This document shows, piece by piece, positions 423 through 32,443 of a stretch of DNA of 38,300 bases. The translations under genes were made by a program, and so were the position numbers. Within the stretch, counting starts at the first letter, position 1. Every line of letters starts with the position of its first letter. The notes under the pieces are model-generated. The model saw only the letters and a list, made by a program, of their open reading frames with translations. It was not told the DNA's origin and did no database searches. The DNA comes from a virus. The DNA lies in UHGV virus genome UHGV-0186551. One strand, 5' to 3'.

Positions 423-1079
423 TTATGAACTATAATAAGTCCTAATCTTTACAGATGAAAGCATAATCTTCCAAGCTTGATCGCTACCCAACCACTCATC
501 GTTGGTTGGTTCATTATCACCAGATACTACATAAGTATCTGGCATATCAAAGTCTATATTGCAAAGGTCTTCTCCTTTGCGCTCCTTAAAAATAAGAAGA
601 TCTATTTTTGTTGTTGGGAATTTTTTATCCAAAACACTTCTCAGTTTATACACAGCATCTCGTTCTGCATTCAATCTAACGAGTAAAACACGTTCCGACT
701 CATTGATTTTCTCTATAAATCTTTTTCTTCTCGCCTTTATTTTTTTCATCATATTAAACAAGCAGACTTCAATACCTTGTTTTTCATAGTCATCAATAAG
801 AATATCGTGAATACTTCGAAATCCAGTCGCTGTATCTGTGATATCAATACAATTTTTAAATCTGCCATTAATTTTTATATTTTCAGGCAAGAAAAGGTGG
901 TCGCACCCCTTATTAATTATTTTTGTAACTTGAGGTAGTTTTTGAGAGGCAAACCAATCAAATGGTCCACTAAATGTCCTCAACCCAAATCGCTTTAACC
1001 TTCCTGCTGGTTGACATTTTTTACCAAGGCTTGCTATAAAATCATACTCTCCACAAGGAAGAAAAAGGCCTTTATTCAT
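423..1079 (-). CDS. Hypothetical protein, 218 aa; N-terminal motif SLGxxC...PFDW reminiscent of DUF1796 (putative papain-like fold); AT-rich accessory gene
   Basis: ORF track 423..1115; start moved to ATG at 1079 (MNKGLF...) which has an AGGAAA ribosome-binding site; AT-rich composition unlike the rest of the prophage. Confidence 0.7.
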   Translation of the reverse strand: MNKGLFLPCGEYDFIASLGKKCQPAGRLKRFGLRTFSGPFDWFASQKLPQVTKIINKGCDHLFLPENIKINGRFKNCIDITDTATGFRSIHDILIDDYEKQGIEVCLFNMMKKIKARRKRFIEKINESERVLLVRLNAERDAVYKLRSVLDKKFPTTKIDLLIFKERKGEDLCNIDFDMPDTYVVSGDNEPTNDEWLGSDQAWKIMLSSVKIRTYYSS

Positions 1080-1196: not shown

Positions 1197-1811
1197 ATGT
1201 TTTTGTTATCTATACCATTTTTTTCATTTGCTTCTGATACAAACAAAACGCCACCATATCGCATGAGGGAGTCGATGTTTGAGTTATTAAAGGAGCAAAG
1301 GGATATTGTTATGCTTGGCGATAGCATAACCGCGCGAGGAGAGTGGAATGAGCTTCTTCCTAGTTTATCTGTAGCAAATAGGGGCATTGGGGGAGATGAA
1401 GTTAAATTTATGAAAAGAAGGATTGATTCTATATTTTTATTAAAGCCCAAATATGTATTCATTATGGGCGGAACAAATGATTTCAGAAGAAAAAGAAGTG
1501 TTGATGATGTGGTTCGTGACTATAAGCATATAATAAAAAAACTACACAAACACAGAATTAATGTATTCATTCAGTCCACCCTTTACGTGTCAAGAGAAAG
1601 CAGGTTAAATGACAACATAAAAATATTAAAATTAAACAATGCAATAAATAACTATTGCTCTGTATCTAATTATTGTCGTTTCGTAGATCTTAACGTGCAC
1701 ATGGCAAAAGATAGAAAAATACTAGCTAAGTATAGCGATGATGGAGTCCATCTAAATGGTAATGGGTATTTAATGTGGGCGTCAATCATATACCCTTTAA
1801 TTAAAAAATAA
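1197..1811 (+). CDS. SGNH/GDSL-family hydrolase (esterase/lipase-like) with hydrophobic N-terminus, probably exported or membrane-anchored
   Basis: Motifs GDSIT, GIGGD, GGTNDF, DGVHLN in SGNH block order; N-terminal MFLLSIPFFSFA; start uncertain (ATG 1080, TTG 1185 or ATG 1197; track start 1011). Confidence 0.75.
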   Translation: MFLLSIPFFSFASDTNKTPPYRMRESMFELLKEQRDIVMLGDSITARGEWNELLPSLSVANRGIGGDEVKFMKRRIDSIFLLKPKYVFIMGGTNDFRRKRSVDDVVRDYKHIIKKLHKHRINVFIQSTLYVSRESRLNDNIKILKLNNAINNYCSVSNYCRFVDLNVHMAKDRKILAKYSDDGVHLNGNGYLMWASIIYPLIKK

Positions 1812-20047: not shown

Positions 20048-20520
20048 ACCTCAATCTCTCTGACCGTTCCGCCCACTTCTTTGAATTTTGCAATCAGGCT
20101 GTCAGCCTTATGCTCGAACTGACCATAACCAGCGCCCGGCAGTGAAGCCCAGATATTGCTGCAACGGTCGATAGCCTGACGGATATCACCGCGATCAATC
20201 ATCGGCAAAGCGCCACGCTCCTTAATCTGCTGCAGTGCCACAGCGTCCTGACTTTTGGGAGAGAAGTCTTTCAGGCCAAGTTGCTTGCGGTAGGCATCCC
20301 ACCAACGGGAAAGAAGCTGGTAACGTCCGGCTGCTGTTGATTTGAGTTTTGGGTTTAGCGTGACAAGTTTGCGAGGGTGATCTGAGTAATCAGTGAATAG
20401 CTCTCCGCCAACAATGACGTCATAACCATGATTTCTGGTTTTCTGTCGTCCGTTATCAGTTCCCTCTGACCACGCCAGCATATCGAGGAACGCCTTACGT
20501 TGATTATTGATTTCCACCAT
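20044..20520 (-). CDS. R: Endolysin R (lambda-type lytic transglycosylase)
   Basis: 158 aa, [26 protein letters not shown]... recalled as lambda R. Confidence 0.95.
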
Positions 20521-20827
20521 CTTCTACTCCGGCTTTTTTAGCAGCGAAGCGTTTGATAAGCGAACCAATCGAGTCAGTACCGATGTAGCCGATGAACACG
20601 CTCGTTATATAAGCGAGATTGCTACTTAGTCCGGCGAAGTCGAGAAGGTCACGAATGAACCAGGCGATAATGGCGCACATCGTTGCGTCGATTACTGTTT
20701 TTGTAAACGCACCGCCATTATATCTGCCGCGAAGGTACGCCATTGCAAACGCAAGGATTGCCCCGATGCCTTGTTCCTTTGCCGCGAGAATGGCGGCTAA
20801 CAGGTCATGTTTTTCTGGCATCTTCAT
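20504..20827 (-). CDS. S: Holin S
   Basis: 107 aa, [20 protein letters not shown]... with dual-start Met1/Met3, recalled as lambda S. Confidence 0.95.
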
Positions 20828-21230
20828 GTCTTACCCCCAATAAGGGGATTTGCTCTATTTAATTAGGAATAAGGTCGATTACTGATAGAACAAATCCAGG
20901 CTACTGTGTTTAGTAATCAGATTTGTTCGTGACCGATATGCACGGGCAAAACGGCAGGAGGTTGTTAGCGCAACCTCTTGCCACCCGCTTTCACGAAGGT
21001 CATGTGTAGAAGGCCGCAGCGTAACTATTACTAATGAATTCAGGACAGACAGTGGCTACGGCTCAGTTTGGGTTGTGCTGTTGCTGGGCGGCGATGACGC
21101 CTGTACGCATTTGGTGATCCGGTTCTGCTTCCGGTATTCGCTTAATTCAGCACAACGGAAAGAGCACTGGCTAACCAGGCTCGCCGACTCTTCACGATTA
21201 TCGACTCAATGCTCTTACCTGTTTTGCAGA

Positions 21231-21290
21231 TATAAAAAATCCCGAAACCGTTATGCAGGCTCTAACTATTACCTGCGAACTGTTTCGGGA
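21231..21290 (-). terminator. tR' terminator (end of 6S late leader RNA)
   Basis: Extended hairpin cccgaaac...gtttcggg followed by U-run on the - transcript. Confidence 0.7.
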
Positions 21291-21426
21291 TTGCATTTTG
21301 CAGACCTCTCTGCCTGCGATGGTTGGAGTTCCAGACGATACGTCGAAGTGACCAACTAGGCGGAATCGGTAGTAAGCGCCGCCTCTTTTCATCTCACTAC
21401 CACAACGAGCGAATTAACCCATCGTT
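21231..21426 (-). ncRNA. 6S-like late leader RNA from pR' to tR' (qut region at its 5' end)
   Basis: About 195 nt between the predicted pR' start and tR', as in lambda. Confidence 0.5.
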
Positions 21427-21432
21427 GAGTCA

Positions 21433-21461
21433 AATTTACCCAATTTTATTCAATAAGTCAA
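21433..21461 (-). promoter_or_regulatory. Late promoter pR'
   Basis: -35 TTGACT (21456..21461) and -10 TAAATT (21433..21438) on the - strand, 17-bp spacer, just downstream of Q. Confidence 0.7.
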
Positions 21462-21503
21462 TATTATGCCGTTAATATGTTGCCATCCGTGGCAATCATG
21501 CTG

Positions 21504-22127
21504 CTAACGTGTGACCGCATTCAAAATGTTGTCTGCAATTGACTCTTCCTTGTGGCATTGCACCACCAGAGCGTCATACAGCGGCTTAACAGTGCGTGAC
21601 CAGGTGGGTTGAGTAAGGTTTGGGATTAGCATCGTCACAGCGCGATATGCTGCGCTTGCTGGCATCCTTGAATAGCCGACGCCTTTGCATCTTCCGCACT
21701 CTTTCTCGACAACTCTCCCCCACTGCTCTGTTTTTGCTATATCAACCGCACGGCCTGTACCGTGGCAATCTCTGCATCTTGCGCCCGGCGTCGCGGCACT
21801 ACGGCAATAATCCGCATAAGCGAATGTTGCGAGAACTTGCAGTACCTTTGCCTTAGTATTTCCTTCAAGCTTTGCCACACCACGGTATTTCCCCGATACC
21901 TTGTGTGCAAATTGCATCAGATAGTTGATAGCCTTTTGTTTGTCGTTCTGGCTGAGTTCGTGCTTACCGCAGAATGCAGCCATACCGAATCCGGCTTGTG
22001 ATTGCGCCATCCCCATAGCAGCCATCACATCAGTACCGGAAAGAGAGTCAGAAGCCGTAGTCCGTGGTGAGTCGCTCATCATCGGGCTTTTTGGCGAATG
22101 AAATTTAGCTACGCTTTCGAGTCTCAT
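21504..22127 (-). CDS. Q: Late-gene antiterminator Q
   Basis: 207 aa, MRLESVAKFHSPKSPMMSDSPR... with Cys-rich zinc-binding region, recalled as lambda Q. Confidence 0.95.
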   Translation of the reverse strand: MRLESVAKFHSPKSPMMSDSPRTTASDSLSGTDVMAAMGMAQSQAGFGMAAFCGKHELSQNDKQKAINYLMQFAHKVSGKYRGVAKLEGNTKAKVLQVLATFAYADYCRSAATPGARCRDCHGTGRAVDIAKTEQWGRVVEKECGRCKGVGYSRMPASAAYRAVTMLIPNLTQPTWSRTVKPLYDALVVQCHKEESIADNILNAVTR

Positions 22128-22312
22128 CGTCTTCCCCTCTTGCCCTGTTTGACCATCAGGACGCCGTTAACTATTACGTGACGCTCGCCTTTGCTGTCTC
22201 GGTTGTACTTGAGCACTGTTCCTCTTGCGCAGGAAAGCATCCTCGCCACTTCGGTCTGATTGCCTCGTGTCTGGATAAGAAGCTCTGGTATCGTTTGAAT
22301 TGTGGCGTTCAT
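22124..22312 (-). CDS. ninH: NinH-like protein
   Basis: 62 aa; GNQTEVAR...RGTV.KY...IVN.VLMV resembles lambda NinH. Confidence 0.75.
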   Translation of the reverse strand: MNATIQTIPELLIQTRGNQTEVARMLSCARGTVLKYNRDSKGERHVIVNGVLMVKQGKRGRR

Positions 22313-22671
22313 ACGTTCTCCAGTTCGGTGATTTTTATTCCAAGCCTTCCGCCTGGTACTTTCACGCCACGAATTACGCGAATGTCATCGAATTGCTCGT
22401 CGTCTTCCGCAAATCCGGCGTGGATAAGAGAGTCGAGTAAACCTTTCAGGATGTTGTCGAGGTCGCGGCGGCGGGAGTCTGGAACGTCTGCGATGACTTT
22501 GATGCGGAGTCGTGATTTGGTGAAAATATCTAACTTGAGTTGGCGGATGATTTGCTGAACTTCTTTTCGGTATTTCTGGCCTTTATCGCTGATGTAGTAT
22601 TGGCTTCCCCGTCTTCGCCAGTAGGTGTTCACCGACGGCGGGTATGGAAGCACAAACTGATATTCGTTCAT
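22309..22671 (-). CDS. rusA: Holliday-junction resolvase RusA
   Basis: 120 aa; PDSRRRDLDN catalytic motif and overall pattern of RusA. Confidence 0.85.
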   Translation of the reverse strand: MNEYQFVLPYPPSVNTYWRRRGSQYYISDKGQKYRKEVQQIIRQLKLDIFTKSRLRIKVIADVPDSRRRDLDNILKGLLDSLIHAGFAEDDEQFDDIRVIRGVKVPGGRLGIKITELENV

Positions 22672-22958
22672 GGCTTAATCTTCCCCTCCTTCAGCAGTAT
22701 CGCCTGCGTCCTGATCACGCCTTCGAGGTGGTAAAGTCTGGCGTCTTTGTTGTCGAGGTTATGGGTGCGTCGGTCGATTTCATCGTGACACGCGCTACAA
22801 GCCCACGCACCGATCAGGTCGTCAGGCTTCATCCCCGTTCCGCAAATTCCAGCCATCCGGTAATGTGCCAGAACTGTAGTTTCAGGATTGCCATTGCATA
22901 CGCCGTAAATACGTACCTGGCATTCTCTGCCGCGCGCTTCTTTGCGTAGGTTAGCCAT
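22668..22958 (-). CDS. YbcO-like Cys-rich putative nuclease (DUF1364-like)
   Basis: 96 aa with multiple Cys/His; resembles DLP12 YbcO from memory. Confidence 0.6.
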   Translation of the reverse strand: MANLRKEARGRECQVRIYGVCNGNPETTVLAHYRMAGICGTGMKPDDLIGAWACSACHDEIDRRTHNLDNKDARLYHLEGVIRTQAILLKEGKIKP

Positions 22959-23227
22959 TATGGTTCACTCCAGTAATTCTCAATTGCAGCAGCCATTCTC
23001 TGCATCCACTCAGCCAGCTTTAACGCGGCTTCTCTTTCAGAACCACATTTAGGGAAATCCTTCATTTCCATGCTGGCCTTATATGTTCTGAATGCCAGGT
23101 CTCCGGTAATAATCAGCTCCTGATCAAGCACCGAGCGTTTATTCCGGTGCTGAACGTAATAGACAGATTCAGTCCGCATTTCTTCTCTGTCTTTTTTGTA
23201 GGAAATAAGCTCAGAGAAATCACTCAT
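22958..23227 (-). CDS. Hypothetical nin-region protein, 89 aa
   Basis: ATG-initiated ORF, tightly packed with neighbours. Confidence 0.6.
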   Translation of the reverse strand: MSDFSELISYKKDREEMRTESVYYVQHRNKRSVLDQELIITGDLAFRTYKASMEMKDFPKCGSEREAALKLAEWMQRMAAAIENYWSEP

Positions 23228-23396
23228 CGTCTTCTTCCTCGTACATTGAGCTATTCGGATCGCTCATCAGTTCTGCGCAGCAGTGCTCACACACGTGAAC
23301 TTCCAGCACATGCAGCTTCTGACCGCAGTTAGCGCACGTTAAAGCCCGCTCGACGCTTTCTTTCTGGTATTGAATGGATTGGGATGGGCTAAGCAT
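23220..23396 (-). CDS. ninF: NinF
   Basis: 58 aa, [58 protein letters not shown]; not in ORF track (under 60 aa), translated by hand. Confidence 0.8.
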   Translation of the reverse strand: MLSPSQSIQYQKESVERALTCANCGQKLHVLEVHVCEHCCAELMSDPNSSMYEEEDDE

Positions 23397-23754
23397 TATT
23401 GGCGTCCTGCATCATGAGAAAGACAATCATGGCAGCGCGGAGTGGGTTTTCATCTTGAGTCATATGATATGGGGTACTATCACTGCCAACTTTTCTATGC
23501 GCTGCCTTCCATAATCCATTTTCTGGCGCTGGAATAATGCCAATTCTGTTCTCTACGATAATCGGCTCTGCGTCTGATGGGCTTTTACAGTAATCAACCG
23601 TTTTTATTGCATAACCAGTTTCGTCATCCCACTCAACACCAACGATTGATGTTCCCAACTTTGCGATTTCGCAATCTTCGGGAGCAAATCCACAGCAAAT
23701 TGCCACTCGCTTGTTAATTTCAAAATCACTTAACTGTGAATAATCCATTGTCAT
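23389..23754 (-). CDS. Nin-region protein (NinX/DUF2591-like, tentative)
   Basis: ATG at 23754 ([18 protein letters not shown]...); start overlaps ninE stop by 4 nt. Confidence 0.7.
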
Positions 23755-23927
23755 TTCCTCGCACGATGTCTTAGCCACCGGATATCCCACAGGTGAGCTG
23801 TGTAATTGAAGGTTTTTACGTCAGATTCTTTTGGGATTGGCTTGCGTTTATTTCTGGAGCGTTTCGTTGGAAGGTATTTGCAGTTTTCGCAGATGATGTC
23901 GGTGAAACTTCGTCGCTGTCGCCTCAT
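23751..23927 (-). CDS. ninE: NinE
   Basis: 58 aa, [58 protein letters not shown]; start overlaps methyltransferase stop. Confidence 0.8.
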
Positions 23928-24451
23928 GCCGCCCTCCTGACGCCCTGCCCGAACGCCATCAATGCCGCTTTGGATACGGTAGTAAACATCCGTCGAGGAC
24001 TGATGAACGGTCGCCAAATCAGCAGCATGGAGCCTTTGCTGTTTCCATTCTTCTCCAGCCCTGTCGATGGTTCGATAAAATTAATCCGTCCATCAGTGAT
24101 AATGCGAACTTCGTCGACACTCTCCAGAGCCTTGCTGAACCATCCGACTGACATATCCTCTGGCACAAGCATAACTACCGTCTGTCGCTGTTGTATGCAC
24201 TGCTCAGCGGCTTTTTCCACCCACGGCCTGATATTGCTGTACGGTGGGTTATTCCAGATTGCACCGTGGCTTACCCACTCAGAATTGAGCGCGTCGTCGG
24301 CCTCAGTTAGCCAGTGAGCACACAGAGCATTTTTGTCGCTCGCTGCCGAATCCAGCCAGAATCCAAACTCAATATCCAGTGCATCAAAAAGCCAAAGCGG
24401 CGTTTGCCAGCAGTCCTTGTCGTGTGCTGGCGTATTTGATTTGATAGTCAT
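23924..24451 (-). CDS. Phage DNA N6-adenine methyltransferase
   Basis: NPPY catalytic motif (IWNNPPYSN); start ATG 24451 overlaps ninB stop by 4 nt. Confidence 0.8.
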
Positions 24452-24888
24452 GCAGCCCGATCTCCCCATCTCGCTTTCCACTCCAGAGCCAGTCTCGCTT
24501 CGTCTGACCACTTAACGCCACGCTCTGTACCGAATGCCTGTATAAGCTCTAATAGCTCCGCAAATTCGTTTACACGCATCCTGCTGGTTGACTGGCCTAT
24601 TACCACAAAGCCATTCCCGGCAAGGTTAGGAACAACATCCTGCTGCTTTAATGCTGCGGTAAACACACACTTCCAGCTTTCTGCATCCAGCCAGCGACCA
24701 TGCCATTCAACCTGACGAGAGACGTCACCTAAGCAGGCCCATAGCTTCCTGTTTTGGTCTAAGCTGCGGTTGCGTTCCTGAATGGTTACTACGATTGGTT
24801 TGGTTGGGTCTGGAAGGATTTGCTGGATAGCTTGAATGGCGTTCTGCTGATGAATGGGGCTTCTTAGTTCAAACGTTAGTTTCCTCAT
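24448..24888 (-). CDS. ninB: NinB (Orf) recombination mediator
   Basis: 146 aa, near-identical to lambda NinB as recalled (PDPTKPIVVTIQERNRSLDQNRKLWACLGDVSRQVEWHGRWLDAESWKCVF...). Confidence 0.9.
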   Translation of the reverse strand: MRKLTFELRSPIHQQNAIQAIQQILPDPTKPIVVTIQERNRSLDQNRKLWACLGDVSRQVEWHGRWLDAESWKCVFTAALKQQDVVPNLAGNGFVVIGQSTSRMRVNEFAELLELIQAFGTERGVKWSDEARLALEWKARWGDRAA

Positions 24889-25123
24889 GGCTCACCTTCT
24901 GCACGCATGGATTAATTAACGCCAAAATAGCTTCTGGTTTCTCAATAACATCGAACCGCTCACCACTTGCCATTCTTACAATCGTAAATCCGGCATCAAA
25001 TAGGGTTTCGATGTTGTCAGAGTTAACGTACAAGGGCTCATATGCACTTCTGGTGCTTTCTATCACGCCTGTGCTTGGTGGCTGATAGATGCTGCATTGC
25101 ATGGTTAATTTTATAAATGGCAT
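24869..25123 (-). CDS. Hypothetical protein, 84 aa
   Basis: ORF in nin region. Confidence 0.55.
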   Translation of the reverse strand: MPFIKLTMQCSIYQPPSTGVIESTRSAYEPLYVNSDNIETLFDAGFTIVRMASGERFDVIEKPEAILALINPCVQKVSHEETNV

Positions 25124-25127
25124 ATAC

Positions 25128-25445
25128 TCACTCCTTCACTTTGACTCCAGCAGCGCGAATCCGTCCTTCGCATTCACTAATTGCGCTGTTATAACCAAAT
25201 GTGACCCCATCCTCGAAATCGGTAGAAAATGCCTCACGCTCTCTTTCTCCAGGACACTCAATCTCGATAGCTGCTCGCGATGCCTGCCACGTTTGCCAGT
25301 GGCCTTGAACATCGTCCATCACGTATTGACCACCAATATCACCACTGCCAATTTCATGGTGATTTTCAGGGTAACGGATAAGGTCTGATGATTCGCCTCC
25401 ACGTCGCAACCAACTTTCTTCAAACTGCTTTCTTGATTCGTCCAT
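25128..25445 (-). CDS. Hypothetical acidic protein, 105 aa
   Basis: ORF in nin region. Confidence 0.55.
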   Translation of the reverse strand: MDESRKQFEESWLRRGGESSDLIRYPENHHEIGSGDIGGQYVMDDVQGHWQTWQASRAAIEIECPGEREREAFSTDFEDGVTFGYNSAISECEGRIRAAGVKVKE

Positions 25446-25462
25446 CGATACTTACCCTCAGT

Positions 25463-25669
25463 TCAACTCACAAAACGCCACGCCATTTTTGTTACGACAA
25501 CAGGCATAACACCGATAATCACCCAGACAAATGCAGCGCCAAACAACGTATACCATGGGTCTTTACCGTCATTCACAAGACGAATGTAGCTATGCAGAAC
25601 AATAAAAAACGTCAGAAGAATCCATCCAACGCCAACGCATTTGAATGCGACGAGCATAAACTCAGCCAC
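25463..25669 (-). CDS. Small membrane protein, two predicted transmembrane helices
   Basis: Hydrophobic 68-aa ORF; track start is GTG at 25669, alternative ATG at 25657. Confidence 0.5.
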   Translation of the reverse strand: MAEFMLVAFKCVGVGWILLTFFIVLHSYIRLVNDGKDPWYTLFGAAFVWVIIGVMPVVVTKMAWRFVS

Positions 25670-25745
25670 GATTTACTCTCCCCCAAATAAAAAGGCCTGC
25701 GATTACCAGCAGGACTTTTATTAGCTCAGTGATGTAGATGGTCAT
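25662..25745 (-). CDS. Small hydrophobic ORF, 27 aa ([27 protein letters not shown])
   Basis: ATG overlaps helicase stop; a near-identical small ORF is recalled upstream of ninB in lambda. Confidence 0.35.
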
Positions 25746-27118
25746 ACGTCAGCCCCTTGTGCATATCGTCTGCCACGCGCAGCAGGTGCATTTGATGCTG
25801 TGCAAATCTGTCTGGCTTCATCCTGGTCACATGCAACAAAGTGTCCGTTACAGAACCGCTGGTAAACCGTACCAAGCGAGCCAAAACGGTTTTTCGTCAC
25901 GATGATTTCAGCAAATGGCGCGGCGCTACTGTTCTCGTCATATACAGCTTCCCGATAGAGCATGATGATTGAGTCTGCGTCCTGTTCAATGCTTCCTGAA
26001 TCACGCAAATCTGCGTTTGTCGGGCGTTTGTTTGGTCGCTTCTCAACATCGCGCGAAAGCTGACTCAGGGAGATAACAGGCGTTTTCAGGTCTTTCGCCA
26101 TCGCCTTAAGGCTTCCGGAGATGTGAGCAATTGCGAGGTCGTTGCGATCTGCTTTCGGCTTCTCAATCAGGCCAAGATAATCCGCCATGATGAGTGACAG
26201 GTTTGGATTTTCCTGTTTGTGCCGTTCTGCGATTGAGCGTATTTCTTCGACCGATAACCGCGAGGCATCGACTACCCATACATCCAAATCTGCAAGCTGA
26301 CTCATGCCGTTAGCAACACGCGCCCAGCCTTCGTCATCCATCGATGCAGGATTTCGCAGTACGCTAACCGACATCCTCCCGGCGTTGGCAATGCTCCGCT
26401 CTGCAATCTGCAATGCGCTCATTTCCATTGAGAAAATCAATACCCCGCGCCGGACGTCAGAACCAGGAATAACGCGGCTTGCAACGCCTTCGGCAATCTT
26501 CAGCGCCAGTTCGGTTTTCCCCATACCAGGACGAGCAGCGATTATCACCAGGTCTTCTGCGTTCATCCCTCCGGTGATGGCATCAAGTTCTTCGATTCCG
26601 GTCTTCAGGGTATCGGACTCTTCTCCGTTCCTCAGACGCCTGTCAAGCGTGTCAGTGTAGTCAGTAATGATTTCCCCTAACCGTACAGGTTTAACCTCGT
26701 CACGGGGCTTTCTGATGGCTGAAAGACGCTTTACAAGCTCATCCATCGCCTGACTCGATGCGTCGATGGTTCCGCTCTGAATTGGTTCACGCATTTCATC
26801 CATGATTTCCAGCACCAGACGGCGGTGATAGTTATCCGCGACCATTCCGGCATATCCCTTCAGGTTTGCGGCACTCGGGCAGTTTTTGCTGGTCATCAGG
26901 ATTGACGTGAAATGCTCCTCTCCGCACGCCTCGGCAACCATCAGCGCGTCGATTAGGTTTCTGTTTCGCGCCTGCTTGCGGATAACCTCGAAGGCTTTCC
27001 TGTAGAGCGGAATTGAAAACGCTTCCGGCTCCAGCGTTGCCAGAACGTCGCTGGCGGTTGGTGTTAATCCACCAATCAGCAGTCCACCGATAACGCTCGC
27101 TTCGATATCCTGTTTCAT
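25742..27118 (-). CDS. Replicative DNA helicase, DnaB family
   Basis: 458 aa; Walker A ARPGMGKT and DnaB-family motifs; start overlaps O stop by 4 nt. Confidence 0.9.
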
Positions 27119-27936
27119 GCAATCCCCCTGTCTGCAAACTTCCCTTCACGAACTCCCGTTAACGAATCTTCCCTCAGCAGGTAATCAAAATCTGCCGTCC
27201 AGCCAGTGTCGTTGTCTCCGAAGTAAAACGGCTTGGCCTGATGCACAAACGCCCTGACATACGCCCTGAAACCGTCCACGTTTGGCGTTTTCAGTTGCGG
27301 GATGATTTTCTTCAGGCGGCGTTTGCGTTTCTCGTTGACCGCAACAGCGTGTGGAAGTCTGTCACCGACTTCGGCGTTGTAGGCGTTCAGGAAGGATTCG
27401 TAGTCGATTCGTTCTGCCTTGCGACGTTCAGGTTTAACCTGCCCATCGCCGCCCCCGTTAGGGGGTAAGGGGGTATTTGTATTTATTGTCTTTTGTATAT
27501 TGTCTTTTGTGTTTAGCTGACTTGGCTTATACCCATTAGCCGACTCGGCTAATGTTTTATTAGCTGTTTTAGCTAATGTTAAGCTGTCCTGGCTAATCCA
27601 CTGCGAAACCACCTTGTTCACTCCGATTTTCACGCCATCAGCAATGAGGAATTTACGCTCGATAAGCTGGCGCTTGGCAGCGCAAACATGAGTGTGATGA
27701 ATACCTGTCATGGCTGCTATCTGCGTGTTTGTGAGTCGATCCATCGGCTTATTGAATCCGTATGTCTTGCGCATGATAGCGAGCATCACCTTCAGCTGCC
27801 GGACGGTTAAATCAGCCATCAGCAGACTGTCGGTAATCTCGTTAGCAACGCGCATGAAACCATCTTCGGTATCTGCCACGCGATGCTCCACGACCTCCAG
27901 TTGAGGCCTGTAATCAGCTAACTTAACGACGCCCAT
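27115..27936 (-). CDS. O: Replication initiator O (iteron-binding, lambda O-like)
   Basis: 273 aa; N-terminus DLT.RQ.KV.LAI.RKTYG.NKPMDR recalled from lambda O; iterons inside the gene. Confidence 0.85.
27470..27596. repeat. Replication origin: four about 17-bp palindromic iterons (consensus near TTAGCnnnnnnnGCTAA) plus adjacent AT-rich element containing a duplicated ttgtcttttgt
   Basis: Iterons at 27513..27529, 27536..27552, 27560..27576, 27579..27596; AT-rich 27470..27512; inside the O gene as in lambda. Confidence 0.75.
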
Positions 27937-28084
27937 GTTTCACTCCTGCTTTGGCTAGTCTGTAAACACCAACAAGGCGCTCTGCGAACGCCCTGTTATT
28001 TGCTGCGGCTACCACTAATCCCTCAGGTGAATCAGGGTGTCGAATCTCTTCTTTTTCCTGGTATTTCTTACGACGTTTTGTCAT
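27923..28084 (-). CDS. Possible small basic protein, 53 aa (MTKRRKKYQEKEE...)
   Basis: ATG at 28084 with AGGAG ribosome-binding site; overlaps O start by 14 nt; hand-translated. Confidence 0.3.
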   Translation of the reverse strand: MTKRRKKYQEKEEIRHPDSPEGLVVAAANNRAFAERLVGVYRLAKAGVKHGRR

Positions 28085-28119
28085 AATTACTCCTGTGGAT
28101 TGATACAGTCTTTCTACAA

Positions 28120-28398
28120 TCAGGCCTCAAAACTGTTGCCGCAGTCTTGAGGCTTTTCTTTTGTCAGCACCATGGCTACTTTCTTTGCCAGCTCCGCTAA
28201 TTCCTCGTCTTCAACACCCCACTCCAGCACAGCCAGAAGCATGGCCATCTTTGGGATAAAGCTGTCTTTCCATCGCGAAATTTGCGATTCATTGATCCCT
28301 AATGCATCAGCAACCTTTCGCTGACCACGTACAGCAATTCGATTTAGGATGTTGCTTGTAATTGCATTCGCTTTCTTGCGAGTACTTGTAAGTTGCAT
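28120..28398 (-). CDS. cII: Lysogeny establishment activator CII
   Basis: SQISRWK...MLLAVLEWGV motif as in lambda CII; start moved to ATG at 28398 (track start 28485). Confidence 0.85.
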   Translation of the reverse strand: MQLTSTRKKANAITSNILNRIAVRGQRKVADALGINESQISRWKDSFIPKMAMLLAVLEWGVEDEELAELAKKVAMVLTKEKPQDCGNSFEA

Positions 28399-28457
28399 AT
28401 GTAAGTATTTACTTAACAAATAAGAAGTTATGCGCATCAACTTATGCGCGTTGTATT

Positions 28458-28500
28458 CCCGCATTTCGGCGGGAATGAGGACCATGACTGTTAAAGAGCG
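28458..28500 (-). promoter_or_regulatory. nutR (boxA cgctctttaa, boxB hairpin cccgccgaaatgcggg)
   Basis: boxA/boxB read on the - strand between cro and cII; boxB identical to the nutL copy. Confidence 0.75.
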
Positions 28501-28506
28501 GTGTTA

Positions 28507-28701
28507 CTATTTGTTTTTCTTGTTGCTTGGGAAAGGACGAACTTCCTCTCCAATCACACTGCCATCAGGCTTTACCGTAACCATGATGTTACGGCCTGCC
28601 AGAATGGCCTTGCTGATAGCGCACTGGATTACACCAAAGTCACTGGCTGCTTTAGCCTGTCCATGGATTTTGGCGTAATCGGCAAGTGTCATTCGAATCA
28701 T
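28507..28701 (-). CDS. cro: Cro repressor
   Basis: TL.DYA...GQ.K.A.D.GV.Q.AI.KA...GR.I......DGSV..EEV.PFPSNKK as in lambda Cro; ATG at 28701 (track start 28707 is GTG). Confidence 0.9.
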
Positions 28702-28730
28702 ATGCACTCTCCGTTATTAACCATGAACAA

Positions 28731-28799
28731 AGAATACTACAGGTATTCAAAGCAATCAATACTCAGGGTATTTTTAGTTTAAGTACCTTAGCTATTAGA
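28731..28799. promoter_or_regulatory. oR/pR/pRM region: operators near gaatactacaggtattc (28732..28748), aatactcagggtatt (28758..28772), degenerate third (28783..28799); pR -10 28731..28736 and -35 28754..28759 on - strand
   Basis: Inverted-repeat operators sharing consensus with oL sites; pR -35 TTGATT, 17-bp spacer, -10 TATTCT; probable leaderless cI transcript. Confidence 0.65.
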
Positions 28800-28807
28800 A
28801 TTAAGCT

Positions 28808-29524
28808 ATGGAAAATAAAAAATCACTGACGACAGAACAGCTCGAAGACGCTAAGCGGCTTAAGGCTTTGTATGAGTCAAAAAAGAAAGAATTGGGAATA
28901 ACCCAATACTCAATCGCTGATGAACTGGGTATCACCCAAGGAGCGGTAGGGCATTATCTTAATGGCAGAAACGCGCTAAACGTTGAGGTTGCATCTGGTT
29001 TTGCACGATTGTTGCAAGTCTCAATTGCTGATTTTAGCCAGTCAATTGCTGCCAAGGTTGCAGAACAGGCAGAAAGCCTTAAGAGCGATGCCAACGTAAG
29101 GTATGCAGGGGAATACAGAGCAGGAAAGAGGTATCCGGTGTTAAGCAGTATCCAGGCTGGCTCGTGGTGTGAAGCATGCGAACCATACACCATTAAAGAC
29201 ATAGATGTTTGGCTTGAGTCTGACGCGCATATTCAAGGTAATGCGTTCTGGCTTAAAGTGGAAGGTGATTCAATGACGGCACCGGTTGGGTTAAGCATTC
29301 CAGAGGGAACATTCGTTCTTTTCGATACCGGAAGGGAGGCGATCAACGGCAGCTTGGTCATAGCAAAACTTTCTGACTCTAACGAAGCAACATTCAAGAA
29401 GCTGATAATCGACGGCGGAAATAAATACCTCAAGGGACTTAATCCTGCATGGCCTCTCGTGCCAATCAATGGAAACTGCAAGATTATAGGCGTTGCAATT
29501 GAGACAAAACTAAGGCTGGTTTGA
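28808..29524 (+). CDS. cI: CI repressor (N-terminal helix-turn-helix, C-terminal S24 LexA-like autocleavage domain)
   Basis: 238 aa; LTTEQLEDAKRLKALYESKKKELG... and AFWL.VEGDSMTAP as in lambda CI. Confidence 0.9.
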   Translation: MENKKSLTTEQLEDAKRLKALYESKKKELGITQYSIADELGITQGAVGHYLNGRNALNVEVASGFARLLQVSIADFSQSIAAKVAEQAESLKSDANVRYAGEYRAGKRYPVLSSIQAGSWCEACEPYTIKDIDVWLESDAHIQGNAFWLKVEGDSMTAPVGLSIPEGTFVLFDTGREAINGSLVIAKLSDSNEATFKKLIIDGGNKYLKGLNPAWPLVPINGNCKIIGVAIETKLRLV

Positions 29525-29541: not shown

Positions 29542-29910
29542 ATGGTTGGAACCGCTATAGCAAGCTTTTTGGGGATGTTGGCAATCTCAACAATTTACGG
29601 CTTAGCGCATGCTTTTATTGCGAAATCTCTATCAGAAAAAATAAGCCAGGCTTGGGCGCATAGATCTGCTCGTTTCATGATTCTAGTGGTCATAGCAATA
29701 CAAGGGATATCTGCATTTATCCTCTATGGATCAAGCTTATACCTGTTGTATCAAGGCGCGACATTTACGCCTTACACCAGTGATTACGGAACTCTATACG
29801 ATGGTAGTGAAGACATCTCTATGGCTTGGATCGTCTTTGGTTTATCTATGGCCGTGTCTGTTGTAGCAGACATCATTAAGGTAATTCTCGTCTTAACCTT
29901 CGCTGACTAA
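29542..29910 (+). CDS. Multi-pass membrane protein co-transcribed with cI (rex-position cargo)
   Basis: ATG at 29542 with AAGGGG ribosome-binding site, 18 nt after cI stop; about four hydrophobic segments; track start 29521. Confidence 0.7.
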   Translation: MVGTAIASFLGMLAISTIYGLAHAFIAKSLSEKISQAWAHRSARFMILVVIAIQGISAFILYGSSLYLLYQGATFTPYTSDYGTLYDGSEDISMAWIVFGLSMAVSVVADIIKVILVLTFAD

Positions 29911-30279: not shown

Positions 30280-30552
30280 ATGGCAGTAGTCATTACATTT
30301 CTGGCTGACGATAACGCCAGAAATCGCCGCAGAGCACGCAGACAGGCTCAACGTGAGCAGGCAATGCAAGAACAGCGACTGGCGCGAAAAATTGCGCTAA
30401 AGCTCTCTGGTTGCGTCAGAGCAGACAAAGCAGCATCACTCGGAAGCCTTCGCTTCAAGAAGGCAGATGAATGGAGTGGAAGTATTTGCCTGCCAAACGT
30501 AGCCATTTACGCGGCAGGCTACCGGAAATCAAAACAACTGACGGCGAGGTAA
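30280..30552 (+). CDS. N: Antiterminator N (arginine-rich-motif type)
   Basis: 90 aa; ARNRRRARRQAQREQ motif; first gene after pL/nutL; GGAGG ribosome-binding site. Confidence 0.8.
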   Translation: MAVVITFLADDNARNRRRARRQAQREQAMQEQRLARKIALKLSGCVRADKAASLGSLRFKKADEWSGSICLPNVAIYAAGYRKSKQLTAR

Positions 30553-31896: not shown

Positions 31897-32000
31897 TATG
31901 AATAAGCACTGTGTATTCATTCCAACGAGTGAATACACGGAGCAATGTCGCTCGTAACTAAACAGGAGCCGACTTGTTCTGATTATTGGAAGTCTTCTTT

Positions 32001-32026
32001 GCCCTCCAGTGTGAGGGCCTTTTTAT
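32001..32026 (+). terminator. Rho-independent terminator in the pL operon
   Basis: gccctc cagtgt gagggc hairpin followed by ctttttat. Confidence 0.6.
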
Positions 32027-32090
32027 ATGCATACCAATAACGCTTCACTCGAGGCGTTTTCGTTATGCAATCAAATATAAGGAGTTACCC

Positions 32091-32225
32091 ATGATGCACT
32101 TTCAGCTCGCGGGTAGCGGCGTCATGTCCGCTTTCTACCCGCACGAATCTGAATTATCACGCCGAGTTAAACAATTAATTAGAGCAGCAAAGAAACAACT
32201 GGAGGCGTTATGCGCAATGAAATAG
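32091..32225 (+). CDS. CIII-like small protein (putative FtsH inhibitor)
   Basis: 44 aa; AAGGAG ribosome-binding site; pattern ...AG...ES.LSRR..QL resembles lambda CIII. Confidence 0.5.
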   Translation: MMHFQLAGSGVMSAFYPHESELSRRVKQLIRAAKKQLEALCAMK

Positions 32226-32362
32226 CCATTAATCACCAGATGCTTCGTGCGGCACAAAACAAAGCAGTAATAGCCAGATTTATTGGTGATTCAAAAATGT
32301 GGATTGAAGCAAATAAAGCGATGAAATCAGCTATCAACCTTCCGTGGTATCGCAGGAAATGA
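32210..32362 (+). CDS. Kil-like small protein, 50 aa
   Basis: Hand-translated; GGAGG ribosome-binding site; position after the cIII-like gene; resemblance to lambda Kil only vaguely recalled. Confidence 0.4.
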   Translation: MRNEIAINHQMLRAAQNKAVIARFIGDSKMWIEANKAMKSAINLPWYRRK

Positions 32363-32443
32363 GTTTTACAGATAACTGGTCAGACGAAGAATTCATTCGT
32401 CAGATGAACAAAATGCTCAATCAGCACAAAAAACAGGAGAAAG

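Follow-up and report, generated by a model that had tools for sequence, protein, structure and literature searches.

The gene lying between ninB and ninE in this 38,300-nucleotide stretch of viral DNA (the window, by which we mean the whole stretch that was analysed) encodes an orphan phage DNA N6-adenine methyltransferase, here called dam. The explanation that best accounts for the evidence as a whole, and that we regard as very probably correct, is a lambdoid Dam of the M.EcoVT2Dam type: an enzyme that would place N6-methyladenine in GATC, would be expressed as a delayed-early gene of the PR-driven nin chain and would top up the GATC methylation of phage DNA. The window is a complete P22-like prophage integrated next to ybhC, encoding a P22-type portal, scaffold, coat, gp4, gp10, gp7 and head-binding tailspike. 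At 99.9% identity, the window corresponds to positions 3359323–3397622 of E. coli SB0258h1 (NZ_CP071954.1). The gene itself is ordinary, being known, published, studied by experiment and annotated by existing pipelines.

All four genes of the locus, ninB, dam, ninE and a ninX-family gene, are coded on the minus strand when read from the window sequence (Table 1). An earlier note on this DNA had described a 175-residue methyltransferase with an NPPY motif between ninB and ninE; the gene is there, on a strand that the note left unstated, and the interval that it assigned to the arrangement, 23751–24888, takes in ninB, dam and ninE and leaves ninX outside. We see no frameshift in dam: the open reading frame is intact, has no internal stops and is seven nucleotides away from the copy in the Stx2 phage VT2-Sakai. 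A longer form of the gene with a GTG start (23924–24511, 195 residues) was rejected, as the Pfam model aligns from residue 4 of the protein that starts at the ATG, which is the start chosen by the VT2-Sakai annotation and by PGAP. The 174-residue open reading frame on the plus strand (23793–24317) is an antisense shadow of the locus, with no family above threshold and a best match that is sub-threshold (Tat, E = 0.023). Directly upstream of ninB, and overlapping it by 20 nt, is an 84-residue open reading frame (24869–25123, minus strand) with a sub-threshold match to FlbD (PF06289; 23.9 bits against a cutoff of 24.7). Its Sf6 homologue carries the annotation 'flagellar protein', and the flagellar family name is probably spurious.

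Table 1. Features of the dam locus and of the early region of the prophage (window coordinates).
Feature	Position	Strand	Evidence or description
ninB, 146 aa, Orf-family recombination mediator, upstream neighbour of dam	24448..24888	-	PF05772, E 2.5e-54; phrog_72
ninB stop / dam start overlap, ATGA	24448..24451	-	junction sequence CTGCATGACTATC
dam, 175 aa, ATG start	23924..24451	-	orphan phage DNA N6-adenine methyltransferase, VT2-Sakai orf32 / M.EcoVT2Dam type
NPPY codons, catalytic motif IV, residues 68-71	24239..24250	-	direct sequence reading
dam stop / ninE start overlap, ATGA	23924..23927	-	junction sequence GCGGCATGAGGCG; identical in VT2-Sakai
ninE, 58 aa, downstream neighbour of dam	23751..23927	-	PF05322, E 4.2e-43
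ninE stop / first possible ninX start overlap, ATGA	23751..23754	-	junction sequence GGAAATGACAATGG
ninX-family gene, 121 aa, alternative start 23748	23389..23754	-	PF10765, E 4.6e-22
Terminator-like hairpin and T run, helicase/nin gap, tR2-like position	25696..25713	-	consensus scan; putative role
N-type antiterminator gene	30280..30552	+	PF25694 N_peptide, E 2.7e-15

Membership of the protein in the PF05869 family of SAM-dependent N6-adenine DNA methylases is strongly supported. The match to Pfam PF05869, 'DNA N-6-adenine-methyltransferase (Dam)', has an E value of 7.7e-65 and 218.1 bits (cutoff 28.1), with residues 4–169 aligned on model positions 1–167 of 169. The NCBIfam equivalog TIGR01712, 'phage N-6-adenine-methyltransferase', scores 263.8 bits against a cutoff of 97.05 (E 4.3e-79). 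The protein also matches phrog_111, and PGAP gives the gene the same name as the equivalog in the 99.9%-identical genome. NPPY is invariant in all seven distant phage homologues that we aligned (from T1 and from Vibrio-group, Aeromonas, Paenibacillus and Acinetobacter phages) as well as in 41 of 41 enterobacterial homologues, and W15, T17, P18, D34, A37, N68, P69, P70 and Y71 are invariant in both alignments. The motifs DxWxTP, LDxAA and NPPY are kept in phage homologues down to 33–39% identity, one of them the T1 gene whose annotation reads 'Dam methylase'.

The target assignment comes from orf32 of VT2-Sakai (AP000363), a protein of equal length that is identical to the window dam at 173 of 175 residues. 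Homologues vary at both substituted positions (K135N and I167F), and the seven nucleotide differences between the genes comprise five synonymous and two replacement codons. We infer that orf32 is M.EcoVT2Dam on the strength of the name of the phage, the annotation of orf32 as 'similar to DNA methylase' and the family to which it belongs; M.EcoVT2Dam is the enzyme of prophage VT2-Sa that targets GATC according to a passage of PMC6602927 citing Radlinska & Bujnicki 2001. Because the two proteins are 99% identical, the window enzyme would be expected to methylate the adenine N6 in GATC, an assignment that rests on a near-identical enzyme, cloned and expressed from a plasmid, and not on the window protein itself. 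PMC10810198 cautions that enzymes of the Dam-like kind can act at other sites when over-expressed.

No solved structure of a relative was found in the PDB, either by sequence search or with a profile of seven diverse homologues. A single-sequence AlphaFold model was poor (pLDDT 43.5); an AF2 model built with 41 homologues reached a pLDDT of 87.3 and a pTM of 0.86, and the predicted chain has a class I SAM-dependent methyltransferase fold. PCIF1, an RNA cap adenosine methylase, ranks first among its structural matches, and METTL3/14 match only weakly. Between 133 and 145 of the 175 residues align structurally to proteins of 380–750 residues, and because the core takes up nearly all of the chain, the confident model depicts dam as a bare, gamma-class-like N6-adenine methyltransferase catalytic domain with no separate target-recognition domain. 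The predicted fold, PF05869, TIGR01712 and the near-identity to orf32 together bear out the identification as an N6-adenine methyltransferase that the earlier note had made. They also raise a question for the whole family, namely how GATC specificity arises in an enzyme that consists of a catalytic domain only.

Three ATGA overlaps, at ninB/dam, dam/ninE and ninE/ninX, had been put forward as a notable feature of the arrangement. Each of the three junctions reads ATGA, and the overlap at the third is ambiguous, since ninX has two possible ATG starts. PGAP, annotating the 99.9%-identical genome, takes the second (23748), two codons on, which leaves a 2-nt gap and no overlap. Purine-rich motifs resembling Shine–Dalgarno sequences lie inside each preceding gene (GGGGAG for dam, AGGAGG for ninE and GAGGAA for ninX), with AGGAGG placed 5 nt upstream of the dam/ninE ATGA. 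Such overlaps are typical of all lambdoid nin regions, where translational coupling is the accepted reading (PMC8022706), and by the same reading dam is likely to be translationally coupled to the gene upstream, as had been proposed.

The overlaps are generic, and there is nothing in them that is special to dam. From the helicase gene to Q, ATGA occurs at 6 of 13 junctions, with an 8-nt overlap at two more and a 1-nt overlap at one, and throughout the prophage it joins genes at 11 of 53 same-strand junctions. Lambda, our reference for junctions in a nin region without dam, has ATGA at ninB/ninC, ninC/ninD, ninG/ninH and ninI/Q, and VT2-Sakai has it at ninB/dam, dam/ninE, orf34/ant and ninG/ninH. 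Overlapping stop and start codons in nin regions have reportedly been known since 1982, when Kroger & Hobom are said to have described lambda ninR as a 'chain of interlinked genes'. What remains of the arrangement is the standard ninB–dam–ninE layout of VT2-Sakai, HK544, Sf101, 434 and hundreds more phages and prophages, and we do not regard it as notable.

The rightward early operon of the prophage runs in the order cro, cII, an O-like gene, a DnaB-like helicase gene, three small open reading frames, ninB, dam, ninE, ninX, ninF, orf89, YbcO, rusA, ninH and Q. A terminator-like site separates the helicase gene from the nin genes, and the N-type antiterminator would be needed for read-through into the nin operon. 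No sigma-70-like promoter was found near dam in a scan of 20500–29000. In lambda, the ninR genes are expressed under PR and in the lytic cycle only (PMC7166090). By analogy, dam should be a delayed-early lytic gene, made mainly after induction and not in the lysogen. It is also an orphan, since PGAP annotates no restriction–modification-type endonuclease in the 99.9%-identical prophage and the best PADLOC matches of dam are orphan-methyltransferase (oMTase) models; the absence of a paired restriction enzyme had been claimed before. The small hypothetical early genes gave no PADLOC defence match, and an Rfam scan of the whole window gave no match.

Other parts of the prophage carry features of separate interest. 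The region beyond the tailspike, which in P22-like phages is the usual site of lysogenic-conversion or O-antigen-modifying accessory genes, here forms the left end of the window and encodes a DUF1796 papain-like peptidase homologue (423–1079, minus strand) and a GDSL esterase/lipase (1275–1811, plus strand). Between Q and the holin gene, about 680 bp (20828–21503) are without an annotated gene. The sole sigma-70-like promoter match in the scan described above lies within this interval (21461–21433, minus strand), in the place expected for the late promoter PR′. In a related, near-identical prophage of strain WP3-W18-ESBL-08 (L001), a NUMOD4 homing-endonuclease-like gene interrupts the equivalent stretch. 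The two prophages also differ between ninF and rusA, where the window (22668–23227) holds orf89 and a YbcO (DUF1364) nuclease gene and L001 (18527–19304) holds a NUMOD4/HNH endonuclease gene and a small hypothetical gene, a clean cassette exchange within the nin region. Finally, a hypothetical protein of 122 residues (29542–29910, plus strand) is encoded immediately 3′ of the CI-type repressor, where prophages typically encode exclusion or defence functions; PADLOC gives no match for it, and Pfam only a weak one of membrane-protein-like character.

In the mechanism that we favour, dam would be transcribed from PR after loss of the repressor and N-dependent antitermination, and translated as one link of the ATGA-overlapping nin chain from its own Shine–Dalgarno sequence inside the preceding gene. 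During lytic growth, replication of phage DNA would outpace the scarce host Dam, and the phage enzyme may then top up GATC methylation before packaging. The virion DNA thus completed would be protected from nucleases sensitive to GATC methylation, and MutH and SeqA would be kept off under-methylated phage DNA. According to PMC8022706, host Dam leaves the virion DNA of P22 and lambda under-methylated, and in phage L the majority of Dam sites are under-methylated too. The anti-restriction role proposed in the earlier note is conceivable solely against enzymes whose action GATC methylation prevents, as the expected specificity is that of the host Dam.

The composition of the prophage tempers the top-up role, because depletion of GATC leaves the enzyme fewer targets. 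Across the prophage (window 1–38300), GATC occurs 75 times, or 1.96 per kb, against 186 occurrences expected from trinucleotides (ratio 0.40), an under-representation second only to that of CTAG. GATC-poor regions in prophages are described in a passage of PMC6602927 that cites Henaut et al. 1996, and the physiological role of phage Dam enzymes is still poorly understood (PMC7556043). What a GATC-depleted phage gains from a GATC methylase when its hosts already have Dam is a question for the family as a whole.

An unlikely alternative is that dam is part of the nin recombination toolkit, together with NinB/Orf, RusA, YbcO and NinH, and is not mainly an anti-restriction gene. If this were true, fast and full GATC methylation would deny MutH its hemimethylated nicking sites, which would ease the mismatch-repair barrier between diverged phages and so promote lambdoid mosaicism.

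We consider it quite unlikely that dam acts as an epigenetic regulator in the lysogen, as the earlier note had suggested, with prophage-made Dam altering host or prophage expression or stabilising lysogeny. The observations in its favour come from Stx phages. The identical dam of Phi24B was picked up when an antibody screen of lysogen cultures yielded matching clones, and the authors of that screen suggested that it might supplement the host Dam (PMC3342100); stable lysogeny of 933W, as PMC3342100 cites from Murphy et al. 2008, requires host Dam. The gene may therefore be expressed to some extent without full induction, or in cells that induce spontaneously. Expression of Phi24B dam nevertheless changes significantly on induction (PMC3342100), and the window gene is an internal member of the PR operon, preceded by cro, cII, the replication genes and the terminator-like site, with no promoter of its own in the scan. 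This position and the analogy with the lytic-only lambda ninR argue against a standing role in the lysogen. Moreover, host Dam already leaves only some 0.1% of the GATC sites of E. coli chromosomes unmethylated, with about 99.9% modified (PMC6602927), so an additional GATC methylase would add little there.

The distribution of dam bears on whether it is of any use to its carriers. A DNA search finds the gene in 1566 of 5426 complete E. coli genomes, often in more than one copy, where PGAP names it 'phage N-6-adenine-methyltransferase' and places it between NinB and NinE. Matches to the region turn up in 435 phage records, among them those of HK544, Sf101, 434, HK140 and numerous Stx phages. 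A protein search extends to 1881 phage records, down to T1 Dam at 33% identity, and a wider one returns PF05869 proteins only, under the same naming, across Enterobacterales.

Decayed forms also occur. The Sf6 reference genome (NC_005344 ~31912–32439, minus strand; L004 567–1094) has the same gene, 5 nt from the window copy, in which codon 50 is changed from GAG to the amber codon TAG; RefSeq leaves it unannotated, and it represents either a pseudogene or an amber allele of this much-studied laboratory phage. This premature stop indicates that dam is dispensable. The databases also hold truncated and fused variants, among them an in-frame Dam–NinE fusion near the ATGA junction (233 residues, 41 member sequences), a frameshifted Dam that runs into the upstream frame of ninE (235 residues), and NinB–Dam and CII–Dam deletion fusions. 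These fused and frameshifted forms probably reflect prophage decay, although sequencing or gene-calling artefacts are possible.

The Sf6 amber codon and the common decayed fusions suggest that the selective value of dam is modest or conditional, and they temper the top-up role as the GATC depletion does. Together with the non-essential nature of nin genes (PMC8022706), they could be taken further, to mean that dam is a selectively neutral passenger, carried along in a region that is mosaic and non-essential and of no adaptive use to the prophage. We find this very unlikely. About 1540 complete E. coli genomes, along with hundreds of phages, maintain the intact 175-residue form at 95% DNA identity or more, homologues at 60–85% identity across Enterobacterales retain 44 invariant columns, and most of the differences from VT2-Sakai are synonymous.

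The least probable alternative, which we regard as highly improbable, is that dam has a different substrate or specificity: adenine methylation that is relaxed or directed at sites other than GATC, which would give broad anti-restriction, or methylation of RNA with a partner, as in the Stx phage phiPA8, whose gp5 was described in 2023 as a 16S rRNA methylase acting with PNB-2 (PMC10810198). The bare predicted domain and its structural match to PCIF1 would be compatible with this, non-specific phage adenine methylases exist (PMC3299994; PMC7556043), and phiPA8 itself shows that a phage 'DNA adenine MTase' can be re-assigned to 16S rRNA (PMC10810198). Against it, METTL3/14 match the model only weakly, the non-specific enzymes Hia5 and Hin1523 form a different group with DPPY and an FxGxG motif I (PMC3299994) whereas dam has no FxGxG motif I, and the 99%-identical counterpart, taken as M.EcoVT2Dam, is GATC-specific in the passage cited above.

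The equation of dam with phiPA8 gp5 was rejected. The phiPA8 protein is of the MT-A70 family (PF05063) and its gene lies near int, whereas dam belongs to PF05869 and lies in the nin region; BLASTP gives no similarity between the two (E 1.2), and tblastn finds no homologue of gp5 or gp6 (PNB-2) in the window (nothing below E 1.5). The hallmarks of the MT-A70 type (phiPA8 gp5/PNB-2, M.EcoGV), namely an MT-A70 domain with DPPW and an adjacent PNB-2 gene, are absent from the window dam.

As a discovery, the gene has little significance, because its family, reported GATC specificity, nin position and ATGA chain are all published; its place among known systems can be set out closely. The alpha-class enzymes E. 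coli Dam, T4 Dam and DpnM share with it the expected product, G-m6A-TC, and orphan status, and when tested, dam fell outside this host-type family. The gamma-class enzymes M.TaqI, MmeI, M.BseCI and type I HsdM are 380–750 residues or longer and have a separate target-recognition domain or subunit, and none has detectable sequence similarity to dam. Its family consists of the phage-borne orphans of PF05869/TIGR01712, the HP1 Dam type, among them T1 Dam. The latter shares DxWxTP, LDxAA, NPPY and GR..F with dam at 33% identity, but is encoded in a different genomic context and is longer (237 against 175 residues), with an N-terminal extension of about 45 residues and an internal insertion that the window protein lacks.

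The closest system is VT2-Sakai, where orf32 likewise lies between homologues of ninB (nin146) and ninE (nin60) with 4-nt ATGA overlaps on both sides. The elements that carry the two genes differ, VT2-Sakai being an Stx phage and the prophage at ybhC a P22-like one of podovirus type. Genes of the M.EcoVT2Dam type are also found in 933W-type phages, Phi24B, HK97, HK544, Sf101 and 434. Lambda ninR has the same organization as the prophage, with tightly packed, non-essential genes joined by ATGA from the replication genes to Q, but carries ninC and ninD in the place occupied by dam. The exchange point falls exactly at the ninB ATGA: GGGCTGCATGA, at the end of ninB, is common to VT2-Sakai and to lambda ninB/ninC, and beyond it the sequences of lambda and this prophage diverge.
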